DNA of 64,000 bases from Octopus sinensis (Eukaryota): the NCBI RefSeq assembly GCF_006345805.1, contig NC_042997.1:8370001-8434000 (forward strand). Reading direction: 5' to 3'. The notes under the pieces were generated by a model. It searched no databases. It saw only the letters and a program-made list of their open reading frames with translations, and had not been told where the DNA came from. How positions within the stretch are numbered: the first letter of the stretch is position 1; every line of letters starts with the position of its first letter. The position numbers and the translations under genes are program-made. Of the stretch, positions 16,296 through 57,190 are shown in pieces.

Positions 16296-16758
16296 TAGGA
16301 GTGGCTGTGTAGTAAGTAGCTTGCTTACCAACCACATGGTTCCGGGTTCAGTCCCACTGCGTGGCATCTTGGGCAAGTGTCTTCTAGTATAGCCTCGGGC
16401 CGACCAAAGCCTTGTGAGTGGATTTGGTAGACGGAAACTGAAAGAAGCCCGTCGTATATATGTATATATATATATGTGTGTGGTGTGTGTGTGTGGTGTG
16501 TGTGTGTGTGTGTGTGTGTGTGCATGTGTGTGTGTATGTTTGTGTGTCTGTGTTTGTCCCCCTAGCATTGCTTGACAACCGATGCTGGTGTGTTTACGTC
16601 GCCATCACTTAGCGGTTCGGCAAACGAGACCGATAGAATAAGTACTAGGCTTACAAAGAATAAGTTCCAGGATCGATTTGTTCGACTAAAGGCGGTGCTC
16701 CAGCATGGCCGCAGTCAAATGACTGAAACAAGTAAAAGAGTATAAGAGATTAAAGAGT
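16296..16758 (+). mobile_element. SINE family A, full length
   Basis: aggagtggctgtgtagtaagtagcttgc...gggttcagtccc head; ends gactgaaacaagtaaaagagt. Confidence 0.9.
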
Positions 16759-17290: not shown

Positions 17291-17628
17291 ATATCTATTC
17301 ACCCATGCATATAAACATTGATATACAATAGATATACTGATATCACATGTATGTGTGTATATATACATATATATATTATATATATATATATATTATATAT
17401 ATATATATATATATAATATATATATATTATATATATATATATAAAGAAGTAAATATATGGCACAACGAAGTACCGATATTTACTGGAAATAGCGAACGTG
17501 ATAATACGACGTTAATGTATAGCTTCACTGCGTATGTACTAGCAAAAATGCGTGAGTGCAACAAACTAGAAAAAATTGTCTTACCTCCAGGGAGAACATC
17601 TGAAAGATGAAATACCTGGAAAAGGAAA

Positions 17629-17708
17629 ATGTGGGACCTGCGCAGGTTTCAGATTTTTCAAGATATGTCTGCACCCATAAACTTGATCTATCTTCATCAG
17701 CCAAACAT
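17629..17708 (-). ncRNA. Type I hammerhead ribozyme motif (canonical core, GUC triplet)
   Basis: AUGUUUGG-CUGAUGA-AGAU...AUCU-GAAA-CCUGCGCAGG-U-C-CCACAU. Confidence 0.72.
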
Positions 17709-17938
17709 ATACCACGACAACATTTCAGATGTTACCACAATAATGCCATTACACTCGACTGAAACACCGAAACGCTAACAGCACGAGAACGGTGAAGAAG
17801 TTTCAATAAATTAGTAATGCAATTCTAGAGTATTGCTTTCCAGTTGTGCCATATATTTACTTCTTTGTATATTTTTCCCTCACGGGCTATTCTTTACTGG
17901 AAAGCAATGTGGTAACATCTGAAATGTTGTCGTGGTAT

Positions 17939-18018
17939 ATGTTTGGCTGATGAAGATAGATCAAGTTTATTGGTGCAGACATATCTTGAAAAATCTGAAA
18001 CCGGCGCCGGTCCCACAT
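17939..18018 (+). ncRNA. Type I hammerhead ribozyme motif (canonical core, GUC triplet)
   Basis: CUGAUGA at 17947-17953. Stem II is AGAU/AUCU extended by UCAAG/CUUGA. GAAA at 17997-18000, palindromic stem III ACCGGCGCCGGU, predicted cleavage after C18012. Stem I is AUG(UU)UGG/CCACAU. Confidence 0.72.
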
Positions 18019-18904
18019 TATCCTTTTCCAGGTATTTCATCTTTCAGATGTTCTCCCTGGAGGTAAGACAATTTTTTCTAGTTTGTTGCACTCACGCATT
18101 TTTGCTAGTACATACGCGGTGAAGCTATACATTAGCGTCGTATTATTACGTTCGCTATTTCCAGTAAATATCGGTACTTCGTTGTGCCATATATTTACTT
18201 CTTTGTATATTTCCCCTCACGGGCTATTCTTTACTGGAAAGCAATACTCTAGTATTGCATTACTAATATATATATATATTAATGTGTCCAACTGTTTAAA
18301 GAAATTCCATTTATTTATGCAGCTGAGGATAGCACTGCATTAAAATTGATGTAATGATTGCATTGTTCAATTAAATGGAGTCGCTTCAAACGGTCGTACT
18401 GCATCACTTTTTGATGTCCTGTTGCTTATTTTGACTTTGTTCACCTTACTTGAGTTGTACGGATAATACCGCACTAACTTGGTGCTTATTTTGATTATAT
18501 ATATATACTAAGAAAAGCATATAAAATAAAGTCATATGTATAAGTGATTTGCTTGCAGGGAATAAGAGCATTTGAGGCCGCTCCCTTACTTAAAGTTTCT
18601 TACTGACATAGGTTCAGTTGGGATCTTCGGCAGACAAACGCTCAGGTAATTCTTTAAAACACCTACACACACTCCATGTAGATGTTTTTAGTTACTGGAG
18701 AGCTGTTGAAATTATCTGGGTCTGAAATCTAATCTGTTGCAGTATCTGATCCCAACTTCACACAAATATTATGCAGTGACGTATACTTTGGCCATTGACC
18801 AAGCTTTGTTTCAAAGTTTAGTACAGGCCCTTCCAGGTTCTTCCATTGAAGAATAGCCATTAATTACTAAGGTGGCTAATAATGTCTCTTGCGAGCTCTT
18901 TTGG

Positions 18905-35921: not shown

Positions 35922-37410
35922 TAGCCATGTACAGAGATGCCATCAGTAAGGTGAGGATTGGCAAAGAGTATAGCTAAGAATTCTGGGTAGACATAGGGGT
36001 TCACCAAGGATCAGTCCTCAGCACCCACTTGTTCACCATAGTCTTCCAGGTATTGACAGAGAAATTCAAGACAGGCTGCCCTTGGGAGCTTCTCTTTGCT
36101 GATTACCTTGCTCTAATAGCTGAGTCGCTATCAGAAGTAGAGAAGATTCAGGTGTGGAAGCAAGGTCGAGAATCGAAGGGCCTTACAGTTAACCTAGCAA
36201 AAACCAAAGTCTTAGTATGTAGGAAGGTGAACAAATCACAAATTCCTTCAGGTAGATGGCTCTGCTTGGCCTCTACAAAAATTTTAGGTAGAAACTCTAT
36301 AAGATGTACCCAGCGTAAGCTATGGACACAAAGGAAGGTTAACTGGGAAGATAGCTTTTGTGTGTGGAAGATGCACAGATACAATAAATACCAAAAATGT
36401 ACAGAAAACAGATTCCATCACATGCTAAGAGGAAGAACTAGAAGTAGCTGATAGCTTCCATTACTTGGGTGACCAAGTCAGTAGTGGGGGTGGATGCTCT
36501 GAAAGTATAGCTGCTAGAATAAGAATACGCTTGGCAAAGTTCAGAGAGCTCCTACCTCTGCAGGTAACAAAGGGCCTCTTACTCAGAGTGAAAGGTAGAC
36601 TGCATGATACCTGAGTGTGAACAGCCATGCTACATGGCAGTGAAACATGGGCTGTGACTGGTGAGGATATGTGTAGGCTTGTAAAGAAATGAAGCTAGTA
36701 TGCTCCGCTTGATGTGTAACATCAGTGAGCATACACAACAGAGTGTAAGTGCTCTGAGAGAAAAGTTGTACATAAGAAACATTAGATGTGGTGTGGAAGA
36801 AAGGCAACTGTGCTGGTATGGCCATGTGATGTGTATGGACGAGGACAGCAGTGTGAAGAGGTATCACACCCTAACAGTGGAGGGAACCTGTGGAAGAGGT
36901 AGACCCTGGAAGACAGAGGATCAGATGGTAAAGCACAACCTTCAAACATTGGGCCTCACAGAGGCAATAACAAGCAAATGAGATCTTTGGAGATATGCCA
37001 TGATTGAGAAGACCCAGTAAACCAAGTGAGATCATAGTCATGGTCGATACTTGTGTCACATTACTGGCTCATTTAAAAACATCCTTCAATCTTTGGGTGA
37101 TATGCCGTGCTTGTGAAGACTTGTTGAACTGAGTGAAATCATAGTCATGGCCGATGCCAGTGGCATGTAAAAAGCACCATTCAAGTATAGCCGATGCCAG
37201 TGCTGCTTCACCAACTCCTATGCCAGTGGCACGTAAAAAGCTCCCACTACACTCTCCAAGTGGTTGGTGTTAGGAAGGCTATCCAACTGTAGAAAGCTTG
37301 CCAAATCAGATTGGAACTTCGTTTAGCCTCTTGGCTTCCCAGTTCTCAGTCAACCATCTAACCCATGCCAGCATGCAAAGTGGACGTTAGACTATGATGA
37401 TTATGGATGA
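35922..37410 (+). mobile_element. 5'-truncated, decayed RTE-clade LINE (RT + C-terminus + 3' UTR)
   Basis: GVHQGSVLSTHLFTIVFQVLTEKFKTGCPWELLFADYLALIAES; later LCWYGHVMCM...VEGTCGRGRPWKT; tail ...ggacgttagactatgatgat. Confidence 0.9.
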
Positions 37411-39208: not shown

Positions 39209-39794
39209 CATATGCATATATGGGTACAGAATATCACCAACTGTAAACAACATGAAATACGCAAACAAACAACAAGAGGAAAAATGGAAAACAGGACAAG
39301 TAAACACAGAGAATAACCCTTCATCAGTTGTCGGCTGTCTCATTTCAAGCATTCAACGACAATATGAGTCTTCAAAGACAGTTGCTCCCATAAATTCTAA
39401 AGTAAGATTTAAGATATATGGAGTGTCAAATTTGGGAACAAAAACAAGACAGTAGAGAGATACAAGGAAACCAAATGAAAACAAACATGGAGGGTCATTA
39501 GACCAGAACGAGAGGATAATTGTGAATGCTAGGTTAAATATTTTCTTTGAAAATAGAAAAGGTAGAAGAGAGAGAAAGAAAACGCCCAGTCCTTTGAACA
39601 TCTGTGCAGGAAAAGAAAGATGGATGATGGTCACGTATGACAGATAGAAAATGGTGAAAGTGGGAGGGGGAAAAACGGGAATTAAAGAAGGATGGTGGAA
39701 GGAATTAGTATAGAGTTGCATCAAAAAGGTTAATATAAACTTACTTGGAAATGGATGCAAAGTGTTCAATTAAATAAATATAATATAAATATAT

Positions 39795-46425: not shown

Positions 46426-47140
46426 TAATCAAACAAAGTAAATATATTGTTGGATGGAGTAAACCTGGTCAAAATACACTGCAGAATAGTGACCTGAGAG
46501 GAAAAAAAAATAGTGGCCCAAGAGTTGTTAAATCAAGGGAGCCAATAAACAGACAATTTTAGGTGAAGCATCCTATATCAGACACAGTCAACAGGTTTCT
46601 AGATGGAAAAAACATTAGTGTTTTTGATGAATTTCTGAAAGATGAAAAAGATCTTTTGATTAATTTCAGTTATTATATTAACTGTTCACATAGTCATAGT
46701 ATGCCATTTTTGGGACCAAGTACATTGTTGTATAGTTTCCTGTATTGATATACATACCAACAGAGATAGAAAGGTTTAGTGGAAGTAGAAGTCAACTTAG
46801 AAGAACAAAGTTTGATTGTAATATAAAGGAGACAGAATATTTTCCTATCATTTCTAGCATGGAGTGGAATATCATTCCTCTTATCACTGAAGGTCTAATT
46901 TTAATCAATTAAATCTATCTTAGCTTGCTGTTCCAGGGTAATTTTCTCTAGTTATCCTTTTAAATTATAACACCACTGGTTCATTCATACGTAGTTCATT
47001 ATCAAAAATCATAAATATTTCCATAAGCATACATAGATGAAGTTTAATAATGCAGCTCTGTATTTAAGAGATGTGGAAATATGCACATAATTTACCTTAT
47101 TTACATTTGACGGGTATTTGTCTTCATCTTGTTTGTTGTT

Positions 47141-47186
47141 AACACAACGTTTCAGCTGATATACCCTCCAGCCTTCATCAGTTGTT
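47141..47186 (-). ncRNA. Minimal type I hammerhead motif
   Basis: AACAA-CUGAUGA-A-GGCUG-GAGGGUAUAU-CAGCU-GAAA-CG-U-U-GUGUU. Palindromic stem III ACGU; one mismatch in stem I. Confidence 0.62.
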
Positions 47187-47247
47187 TTGGGGAAATTTCG
47201 AACCTGGGTCCTCATTTCTAAGATATATTTCAATGTCATGGTTATTG

Positions 47248-47316
<69 letters not shown>

Positions 47317-47428
47317 TCAGTGCCTGGAATCAAACTCGGAATCTTGGGGTCAGTATGCTGTGCTCTTAACCACTACACCATATACCCATGGTCTTAGGAA
47401 TGAGAACTCAGGTTCGAAATTTCACCAA

Positions 47429-47474
47429 AACACCTGATGAAGGCTGGAGGGTATATCAGCTGAAACATTGTGTT
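47429..47474 (+). ncRNA. Minimal type I hammerhead motif (inverted duplicate)
   Basis: AACAC-CUGAUGA-A-GGCUG-GAGGGUAUAU-CAGCU-GAAA-CA-U-U-GUGUU. Perfect 5-bp stem I; CG>CA change in stem III. Confidence 0.62.
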
Positions 47475-48117
47475 AACAGCAAACAAGATGAGGACAAATA
47501 TCCATCAAATGTAAATAATATAAATAATGAAACTTAATAAGACTGAAACATGTTCAGAGTTGATAGCACTCTACTCAAGAACATACACCTAATTTTATTA
47601 CGAATTTAACTATAATTAATTACAGTGTTTGAGTTGTCTCCCTTGCGTTTCTGATGAGAATTAACCATTTCTATAATGATTGTTCGTGTCAGTAACAGCG
47701 TAGTTTTAATTAATTAAAATTACTTGGCTTACTCCATCAAGTATGCCAGTGCCCAGTTTACTATCAATCAAGCATTGAGATACGAATCAAGTTCATTAAC
47801 TTTCAAATGCACTGAAGCAAACAAAGTAATGATCCTTGCTTAAGGATACAATTCAACGGTTATATAAATGTTTAAACTGATGCCAATATAATCAGAAACT
47901 TTAATAGAGTCAACCATTGAAACTTTTCAAGAAAACTTTAATAGAATTCTCACTGAAGCTCCTCATCAGTCACTTTCAACTTACTATGTTCAAGAATAGG
48001 GAACCCAGATACAGTTCACTAATATGTCAACTTCAAATATTGAAACATAATCAGAGAACAGCAGCAGCAGCAGCAGCAGCAGCAACGGAAATATGATTTC
48101 TAATATAAGCACATTCT

Positions 48118-55572: not shown

Positions 55573-57066
55573 TCATCATCATCATCATCGTTTAACGTCC
55601 GCTTTCCATGCTAGCATGGGTTGGACGGTTCAACTGGGGTCTGGGGAGCCCGAAGGCTGCACCAGGCCAGTCAGATCTGGCAGTGTTTCTACAGCTGGAT
55701 GCCCTTCCTAACGCCAACCACTCCGAGAGTGTAGTGGGTGATTTTATGTGCCACCGACACAGGTGCCAGACGAGGCTGGCGAACGGCCACGCTCGGATGG
55801 TGTTTTTATGTGCCACTGACACAGGTGCCAGATGAGGCTGGCGAACGGCCACGCTCGGATGGTGTTTTTATGTGCCACCGACACAGGTGCCAGACGAGGC
55901 TGGCAGACGGCCACGCTCGGATGGTGTTTTTATGTGCCACCGACACAGGTGCCAGACGAGGCTGGCAGACGGCCACGCTCGGATGGTGATTTTATGTGCC
56001 ACCGACACAGGTGCCAGACGAGGCTGGCAGACGGCCACGCTCGGACGGTGTTTGTTACGTGCCCACAGCACGGAGGCCAGTCGATGCGGTACTGGCTACG
56101 GTCCCGTTCGGATGGTTTTCTTATGTGCCACCGGCACTGGTACCACAAGGATACAAATTCCATTGATGTTCATCTATTTTGATTTGGTTTGACTTGATTC
56201 GATTTGACTTTGATTTGACTTGCCTCAACAGGTCTTCACAAGTGTCACAAGCAGGAAGGTATGCACAGGCGGACTGACTATGCCCCAGGTAGGGGCCACG
56301 GGTTATGGCTTCACTAGTCTTGCCGGGTCTTCTCACGCACAGCATACTTCCATAGGTCTCGGTCTCTGGTCATTTCCATGGTGAGACCTAATGTTCGAAG
56401 GTCGTGCTTCACCACCTCGTCCCAGGTTTTCCTGGGTCTACCTCTTCCACGGGTTCCCTCAACTGCTAGGGATTGGCACTTTCTCACACACCTATCTTCA
56501 TCCATTCTCGCCACATGACCATACCATCGCAATCGTCTCTCTTGCACGCAACAACTGATGCTTCTTAGGTACAACATTTCTCTTAGGGAGCTAACACTCT
56601 GTCGAGTAAGTACACTGACATTACTCATCCATCGGAGCATACTGGCTTCATTCCTCATGAGCTTACGCATGTCCTCAGCAGTCACGGCCCATGTTTCACT
56701 GCCATGTAGCATGGCAGTTCGAACACATGCATCATACAGTCTGCCCTTTACTCTGAGCGAGAGGCCTTTAGTCACCAGCAGAGGTAAGAGCTCCCTAAAC
56801 TTTGCCCAGGCTATTCTTATTCTAGCAGTTACACTCTCAGCGCACCCACCCCCACTACTGACTTGGTCACCTAGATAACGGAAGCTATCAACTACTTCTA
56901 ATTTTTCCCCCTGGAAAGTGACGGAAGTTGTTTTCTGCAGATTTTCGGAGGTCAATGCTCCCGAGCATCTGCCACATATAAAGACTGTCTTCCCAGTTAG
57001 CCTACCTTTGACATTGCTGCACCTCTTATGTGTCCATAGCTTACACTGGGTACATCTTATAGAGTT
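55573..57066 (-). mobile_element. Young 5'-truncated RTE-clade LINE (intact ORF2 C-terminus 56314-56955, 3' UTR, (GAT)n tail)
   Basis: [11 protein letters not shown]...RIRIAWAKFREL...VKGRLYDACVRTAMLHGSETWAVT...RRLRWYGHVARM...RGRGRPRKTW. Same family as 35922-37410. Confidence 0.93.
55741..56055. repeat. 62-bp minisatellite x5 inside the RTE 3' UTR
   Basis: Unit atgtgccaccgacacaggtgccagacgaggctggcagacggccacgctcggatggtgttttt starts at 55746, 55808, 55870, 55932 and 55994. Confidence 0.95.
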
Positions 57067-57190
57067 GTATGTATGTGTATATATGTATGTGTATATATAT
57101 GTATGTGTATATATATATATGTATGTGTATATATGTATGTGTATATATACATATATGTATGTGCATATATATATGTATATATATATATAT

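Follow-up and report, generated by a model that had tools for sequence, protein, structure and literature searches.

The hammerhead ribozymes (HHRs) of Penelope-type elements (PLEs) have been described as carrying a palindromic stem III and as dual motifs located 100-700 bp apart on opposite strands, in families rich in compensatory change (Cervera & de la Pena 2014, PMC4209133). The footprint left by PLE insertion consists of a (TA)n target, an adjacent inverted and 5'-truncated copy and a tail on one side only (Craig et al. 2021, PMC8557442), and the supplement of the same paper reports Hydra-clade HHRs with a 4-bp stem III and loops of 1-3 nt, an octopus element, Hydra-1_Obim, that bears an HHR with a 4-bp stem III and targets (TA)n, and an element, Penelope-13_HM, with an HHR on each strand. 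In vitro, both strands of AT-rich DNA are cut and extended by the anole PAc element, whose reverse transcription starts internally on unprocessed RNA and whose tail is optional; PAc is predicted to act as a dimer, and its HHR cleaves only with protein (PMC11167929). Non-LTR retrozymes are units of 150-450 bp, mussel included (Cervera & de la Pena 2020, PMC7229834), and retrozymes have been linked to the pLTRs of PLEs (Li et al., bioRxiv 10.64898/2026.07.22.740005). A palindromic stem III was likewise noted in repeat-type HHRs (Perreault et al. 2011, PMC3088659), and minimal dimerising hammerheads of PLEs were described by Lunse et al. 2017 (via the reviews PMC6765202 and PMC6466107).

By the window we mean the whole 64-kb stretch analysed here, which the LINE matches described further below also make very likely to be octopus DNA. 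It contains a locus that combines features of several of these systems. We read it, with a probability of roughly 70%, as two head-to-head copies of a high-copy, ORF-less type I hammerhead repeat of ~430 nt, likely a non-autonomous retroelement of Penelope type resembling non-LTR retrozymes, the two arms of which were likely produced by reverse transcription of two RNA templates that were close relatives. The inverted arms (17437-17739 and 17908-18210) are 303 nt long and 97% complementary, and differ at 8 of 303 nt, seven of which fall inside the 297-nt core quoted in the original prediction. Self-comparison resolves more than these two arms, namely two head-to-head copies of a circularly permuted unit, and the features of the locus are the following.

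17378-17436, no strand: (TA)n microsatellite, left insertion flank (from the sequence)
17437-17844, minus: left copy, 408 of the ~430 nt of the unit, running from the tail end through a 70-nt linker, U, into the arm (self-BLAST, slices, family contigs continuous across 17805-17810)
17629-17708, minus: left type I hammerhead, with core 17700-17694, stem III ACCUGCGCAGGU at 17647-17636 and predicted cut after C17635
17740-17809, minus: linker U, 70 nt, leading from the unit tail to the start of the hammerhead-bearing arm and occurring once at the locus (self-comparison; contig pieces spanning 17805-17810)
17810-17844, minus: copy of the unit's terminal segment 18233-18267, with 1 difference in 35 nt (self-comparison)
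17843-17844, no strand: head-to-head junction, a 2-nt overlap common to both copies
17843-17908, plus: direct duplicate of 18181-18245, forming the 5' end of the right copy (self-comparison)
17908-18267, plus: main body of the right copy, arm 17908-18210 and tail (self-comparison)
17937-17985, plus: predicted competing hairpin, in which the 5' strand of stem I and CUGAUGA pair with the stem II loop region, also present in the left copy (minimum-free-energy structures, constrained folds)
17939-18018, plus: right type I hammerhead, with core 17947-17953, stem III ACCGGCGCCGGU at 18000-18011, predicted cut after C18012 and a private T17971
17954-17957/17993-17996, plus: right stem II, with an extension at 17961-17965/17985-17989
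18211-18267, plus: 57-nt tail, at the right 3' end only (self-comparison; tail as conceived for PLEs in PMC8557442 and PMC11167929)
18267-18279, no strand: (AT)n, right insertion flank (from the sequence)

In the hammerhead sense, the left copy begins at 17844, proceeds through U (17809-17740) and the arm, and ends in the (TA)n tract at 17437, the equivalent of 18210. The right copy lacks ~92 nt (tail end plus U) at 17907/17908, a joint spanned by none among the contig pieces listed from the four runs described below. The two 3' ends of the unit, 198 and 255 nt 3' of the predicted cut, both lie in simple sequence, and a target-site duplication is indiscernible within (TA)n. No full tandem array of the unit is found in the window, and a 65-nt direct repeat is present. 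The unit has a GC content of 38%, and its longest Met-started stretch is 48-51 aa. A perfect 7-bp hairpin, GCAATAC-TCTA-GTATTGC, is located directly before the right 3' end (18241-18258, plus); by its likeness to the PAc stem-loop, it is possible that this hairpin is a signal for initiation of reverse transcription. The plus strand of the unit also holds a donor-like GAG/GTAAGA (18060-18068) and, ~107 nt away, a pyrimidine-rich acceptor-like TTTCCAG (~18155-18169); no contig joint corresponding to a putative intron at ~18063-18169 is present among the joints listed, and PLEs can hold introns.

The original prediction had called attention to CUGAUGA...GAAA...GUC in both arms of a 297-bp inverted repeat, and the motif proves to be a complete type I hammerhead on opposite strands. 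CUGAUGA starts at 17947 on the plus strand and at 17700 on the minus strand, GAAA occupies 17997-18000, and C17 of the GUC is 18012 (plus) or 17635 (minus); in each arm, CUGAUGA is followed by a stem II region of 43 nt with AGAU/AUCU as its closing strands, then by GAAA, a 12-nt palindrome, GUC and the stem I partner. By the type I core definition given in the methods of PMC3088659, all the conserved positions are in place (C3 U4 G5 A6 N7 G8 A9, G12 A13 A14, A15.1-U16.1, H17), and the core-adjacent stems are present with an open stem I, of 3 bp plus a bulge plus 3 bp, a stem II of 4 bp and a stem III of 4 bp. The 10.1-11.1 pair is A-U, not G-C, in the motif of both arms. A full type I descriptor (stem I of at least 3 bp, stem II of at least 4 bp, stem III of at least 4 bp or palindromic) matches only twice in the 64 kb, both strands considered, these being the two motifs of the locus, and not once in 60 block-shuffled windows. 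At gathering score, Rfam reports no family anywhere in the window, and its 15 matches at E<=10 within 17300-18400 do not include a hammerhead model.

Two of the arm differences fall in stem III and preserve its 12-nt palindrome, as had been predicted: G18003 and C18008 in the right arm correspond to T17644 and A17639 in the left. Within a 4-bp monomer hairpin, 18003/18008 is the pair that closes the GCGC loop, and in the palindrome the two positions mirror each other. The chance of obtaining such a pair from seven independent substitutions is ~0.0006-0.001, a post hoc figure for substitutions that are not independent local events. The left motif is nearer the family majority, having G at the equivalent of 17971; the T17971 of the right arm is private to it, G making up 99.8-100% of depth in the family, and this G is predicted to support a distal stem II helix that the left arm retains.

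Of 24 public sequencing runs listed, 20 (10 studies, four organisms) contain part of the stretch, none being on record as RNA. Four of the 24 were compared as assembled contigs on 17745-18180: X1 (organism A; 729 contigs aligned), X4 (organism B; 527), X10 (organism D; 177) and X11 (organism A, presumed RNA; 31). Summed depths reach hundreds of thousands, with the reservation that contig depth is not copy number, that each allele class rests on 1-5 contigs per run and that the variants are those listed. In every DNA-type run both alleles of stem III are common, with the T..A 12-mer accounting for 0.29 (X1), 0.39 (X4), 0.37 (X10) and, in the presumed RNA, 0.62 (X11) of the depth at 18003, on 3, 4, 2 and 1 contigs. 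The depths of the stem III classes add up once a 2-nt-deleted form is included: in X1, G18003T (3343.8) and the 2-nt deletion (1270.9) equal C18008A (4614.7), in X4 the corresponding values are 2501.4, 1169.3 and 3670.7, and the sums are 494.2 + 165.8 = 660 in X10 and 16.5 + 9.84 = 26.4 in X11. Since these sums close exactly, the depths in all four runs are accounted for without any unlinked T..C or G..A class. The 2-nt-deleted form is a 10-nt palindrome, ACCUGCAGGU, read directly in X10 and X11 and in a loose end of X4, and X1, X4 and X10 also contain a form shortened by 6 nt to ACCGGU; the suggested survey of stem III variants thus yields, in contigs of four public runs, two common alleles of 12 nt and forms of 10 and 6 nt. 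A second compensatory pair, T17961A + A17989T, lies in the stem II extension, its two changes having identical depths in X4 (1169.3), X10 (165.8) and X11 (9.84), and is carried by the 10-nt subfamily together with T17966A, which is able to add a pair. Covariation of the stem III pair and of the stem II extension pair is therefore seen across the family contigs, in line with the hammerhead fold, albeit on few contigs and the rows listed. CUGAUGA, GAAA and U16.1 are untouched by any variant among those listed. In a loose end of X4 (2 contigs) stem II carries T17994C, with no partner change among the visible letters, and one X11 contig (depth 28.7) joins 17955 to 18024, skipping the 68 nt that hold stems II and III.

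The family is of very high copy, and both stem III alleles are common and linked in runs from three organisms. As the alleles are family-wide, the double change was neither born at this locus nor produced by an assembly error, which answers the worry about an assembly artefact. The proposal that the difference was created here, by a point mutation that strand-templated correction then copied to the other half of the palindrome, or else by a faulty assembly, has in its favor that template-switch mutation in quasi-palindromes is a known process. Both alleles are, however, abundant and linked in the runs of organisms A, B and D, and a local event would need to arrive at the very sequence of the second family allele; we regard this proposal as very improbable. 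Strand-templated correction, one of two causes originally put forward, is hence not needed at the locus and may be the distant origin of the allele. The other cause, selection on dimer pairing with two different template RNAs, is supported in its second half, given that both alleles are common and linked in the family, while its first half is only a possibility, given that the covarying pair also closes the 4-bp monomer hairpin.

The presence of different alleles in the two arms is most simply, and in our judgment probably, explained by two RNA molecules. T18092, found in both arms, is a minority letter, A making up 90-97% of depth in all four runs, and both tail copies read CTAG where the consensus of an 11-contig loose end reads CTCG; because these minority letters are common to both arms, the templates were close kin or the arms have been partly homogenised, as opposed to being two random members of the family. 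Close-kin templates may reflect one source array, or a lineage particular to the species of the window. The same shared letters, together with the 97% identity of the arms, would also be expected if a single template had served both arms, or if the insertion had occurred beside an older copy, with the stem III difference acquired afterwards, either in a short gene-conversion tract donated by another family copy or through template switching between source copies. PLEs do tend to insert into or beside existing copies (review PMC6765202), and a template jump is visible at 17907/17908. Nevertheless, the arms differ as well at 18118, another family polymorphism (A at 17-40% of depth), although as a CpG site it can recur; differences also separate the duplicated segment 17843-17908 from 18181-18245; and a single event would account for the clean joining of the two 5' ends and for the location of both 3' ends in one (TA)n tract. 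We therefore consider an origin from one template unlikely and retain two related RNA templates as the preferred reading.

From PLE biology, we infer how such a structure could arise. The unit would be transcribed as a multimeric or circular RNA, and a PLE protein with RT and GIY-YIG domains, supplied in trans, would nick both strands of the (TA)n target. Each nick would then prime cDNA synthesis inside the unit, 198 or 255 nt 3' of the predicted cut, which would leave the 57-nt tail on one side only. Both cDNAs would pass the uncleaved hammerhead, continue round the unit and be joined 5'-to-5' through the 2-nt overlap.

A closed unit is supported by contigs that span its joints. The tail-to-U junction is crossed in X10 (record 9, covering 17753-17834 at a depth of 435 with 2 differences), in X1 (record 2) and in X4 (record 24), and the U-to-arm joint 17745/17906 is present in four of four runs; as only 0-3% of the aligned contig sequence continues into unlike sequence, the closed unit is a property of the family. 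Depth climbs ~10-fold towards 18090-18180, suggestive of many 5'-truncated copies, with the reservation that contig depth is not copy number. These data bear on the possibility that the unit is only the pLTR, or 3' end, of an autonomous PLE, for instance Hydra- or Neptune-like, the tail-to-U junction being a frequent partial-tandem by-product. The pLTRs of PLEs do carry such HHRs 100-210 nt from the 3' end (PMC8557442 supplement), and the Logan contigs, being short, could hide an ORF-bearing minority. However, the loose ends upstream of U are all tail-like among those listed, the run-on into unlike sequence is as low as stated, and the HHR is followed by no ORF, so that we judge this account improbable. 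Likewise, no PLE RT or GIY-YIG motif is found in six frames of the window, and Pfam applied to 20 chosen ORFs of the window returns only an RVT_1 fragment and a weak PHD match, both in the LINE remnants described below. Six short strings of the element have no match (0/6) in the PLE supplement of PMC8557442, in the text of which line breaks could hide one.

The RT and GIY-YIG ORF of an autonomous PLE is thus absent, while the inverted 5'-truncated copy, the one-sided tail and the microsatellite target are those of a PLE-type insertion as set out in PMC8557442, and the unit itself, ORF-less, within 150-450 bp, below 50% GC and with a type I HHR, has the makeup of a non-LTR retrozyme. Judging from its sequence, it is best filed as behaving like a non-LTR retrozyme mobilised by PLEs, not as an autonomous PLE. 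The likeness to non-LTR retrozymes (PMC7229834) extends to their low GC content and lack of ORFs, their high copy number, the occurrence of dispersed monomers and a proposed descent from PLE pLTRs, the mussel example measuring 350-390 bp. In contrast, the octopus locus is head-to-head and not a tandem array, its stem III has 4 bp and a palindromic tetraloop where 1-2 bp are usual, and a self-cleaving circular RNA is, for this locus, a prediction from DNA sequence. With Hydra-clade PLEs (PMC8557442) it shares the (TA)n target, an HHR close to the 3' end whose 4-bp stem III shows compensatory changes from family to family, HHRs on both strands through an inverted 5'-truncated copy, and a one-sided tail; it differs from them in having no RT/GIY-YIG ORF, no extra nucleotide after A9, a much longer stem II (the 43-nt region) and a tail of 57 nt versus 30-40. 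As in the schistosome SINEs of SM-alpha type (PMC6765202), a short repeated element bears a type I HHR, but the ~430-nt unit has no B-box and no tRNA gene or tRNA-like head (ARAGORN was used for tRNA genes), and a tRNA-derived HHR SINE, which would have Pol III A/B boxes and a tRNA head, was rejected. No cephalopod family is named in the portions of the retrozyme papers that were searched, the word octopus having no occurrence in the main text of PMC7229834.

As to why the compensatory pair is maintained, the most likely cause is selection for stem III to pair in the source RNAs of the family, whether as monomer hairpin or as dimer, two modes that are not separable here. A more specific proposal, compatible with the preferred reading of the locus, is that the ribozyme cleaves as a homodimer and that the alleles are self-compatible pairing types. 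In accordance with it, the 12-, 10- and 6-nt forms of the family are all palindromic, metazoan type I and PLE HHRs are known both to have a palindromic stem III and to cleave as dimers (PMC4209133; PMC3088659, legend of Fig. S8; axolotl dimers in PMC7229834), and secondary-structure models put the monomer fold at a disadvantage of 2-11 kcal/mol, according to the construct. Stem III duplexes of the same allele are predicted to gain ~20 kcal/mol over two hairpins and mixed duplexes ~9, values that are compatible with dimer use. Set against this, the covarying pair has a place in the monomer too, as the closing pair of its hairpin; the 10- and 6-nt forms are those expected from slippage in GCGC or CCGG..CCGG, which leaves them palindromic automatically; G18006T, at 9%, 21%, 9% and 0% of depth in the four runs, breaks the palindrome centre, barring a partner change outside the listed rows; and in the Hydra PLE HHRs covariation is found in a 4-bp stem III whose loops are 1-3 nt long, many of them odd-length and hence non-palindromic (PMC8557442 supplement). 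Unlike the minimal dimerising PLE hammerheads, the octopus stem III is able to form a hairpin as a monomer, which makes dimerisation optional. We thus treat homodimer cleavage as a possibility, though a doubtful one. An intramolecular dimer between the two arms is ruled out by the location of the motifs on opposite strands.

The fold of the genomic copies was assessed with a secondary-structure model that has no tertiary contacts. The competing hairpin at 17937-17985 is predicted to be complete before stem III is transcribed and to bury the core, and the hammerhead fold would cost 8.3 kcal/mol for 17930-18030 and 6.5 for the left equivalent, falling to 1.8-5 kcal/mol for constructs that start at 17941-17944 (overall range 1.8-11 by construct). 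The 17930-18030 construct originally suggested for a cleavage assay has a predicted misfold of ~8 kcal/mol and contains the private G-to-T at 17971. Natural pieces are 63-64% paired in the computed folds, with z-scores of -2.2 to -4.0 against 40 shuffles, and the antisense is similar (z -2.5, -3.1). A read-through transcript of the locus is predicted to form one hairpin of ~-580 kcal/mol in which the whole motif is paired. Since such RNA would be one long hairpin and a local hairpin would bury the core besides, ribozyme activity in situ is doubtful, and the genomic copy is probably a dead-end insertion and not a working ribozyme in place. The locus had been singled out as the best candidate for an active ribozyme in the window; its motif is indeed the best formed there, but activity in place is not what its opposite strands and read-through hairpin lead one to expect.

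The locus itself is ordinary, in that PLEs are already known to have twin opposite-strand hammerheads, a palindromic stem III and compensatory changes. The abundant ~430-nt octopus HHR family has no description in the paper listings searched on octopus or cephalopod hammerheads, retrozymes and Penelope; TE libraries and the supplements of the retrozyme preprint, of PMC7229834 and of PMC4209133 may list cephalopod families. Its two frequent stem III alleles provide a free genetic marker for whether tandem and inverted PLE insertions derive from one RNA or two, a question named by Craig et al. 2021 (PMC8557442), and its stem III forms of 12, 12, 10 and 6 nt are a natural allele series for monomer versus dimer cleavage. 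A bolder hypothesis, which we hold to be rather unlikely, is that an uncatalogued circular-RNA retroelement of octopus cleaves as homodimers and so keeps self-compatible stem III pairing types across species, and that a Penelope RT dimer loading two RNAs makes the head-to-head insertions; if true, the stem III alleles would be built-in barcodes for how PLE inversions form.

A pattern scan of metagenomes returned 86 loci. None of them resembles the element by BLAST at E<1e-3, only 3 have a stem I-like CC behind the motif, and all were taken as chance matches in unrelated DNA. Elsewhere in the window, a second, unrelated inverted pair (47086-47223 and 47392-47529; 138 nt, 91%) bears a minimal PLE-type hammerhead with an extra A after CUGAUGA and a stem III of ACGU, intact on the minus strand at 47181 and with a G-to-A change on the plus strand at ~47467; it is this pair, and not the locus at 17437-18267, that represents the typical minimal dimerising type. 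Relics with twin HHRs are evidently common in this genome. At 39327 (minus), CUGAUGAAGG is followed by a long pyrimidine-rich stretch that fits neither hammerhead descriptor and possibly belongs to another HHR-related element. A repeat at 16560-16745 (plus), in which ARAGORN finds no tRNA gene, is presumably an octopus tRNA-derived SINE. Finally, LINE remnants that we take to be RTE-like are located at 35978-36448 (plus) and 56317-57189 (minus), with an RVT_1 match at E 9e-6 and an RT C-terminal region with the weak PHD match, respectively, and the fragment 56446-57063 has 10 species-labelled matches, five from Octopus (70-89% identity) and five from Hydractinia (50-53%).
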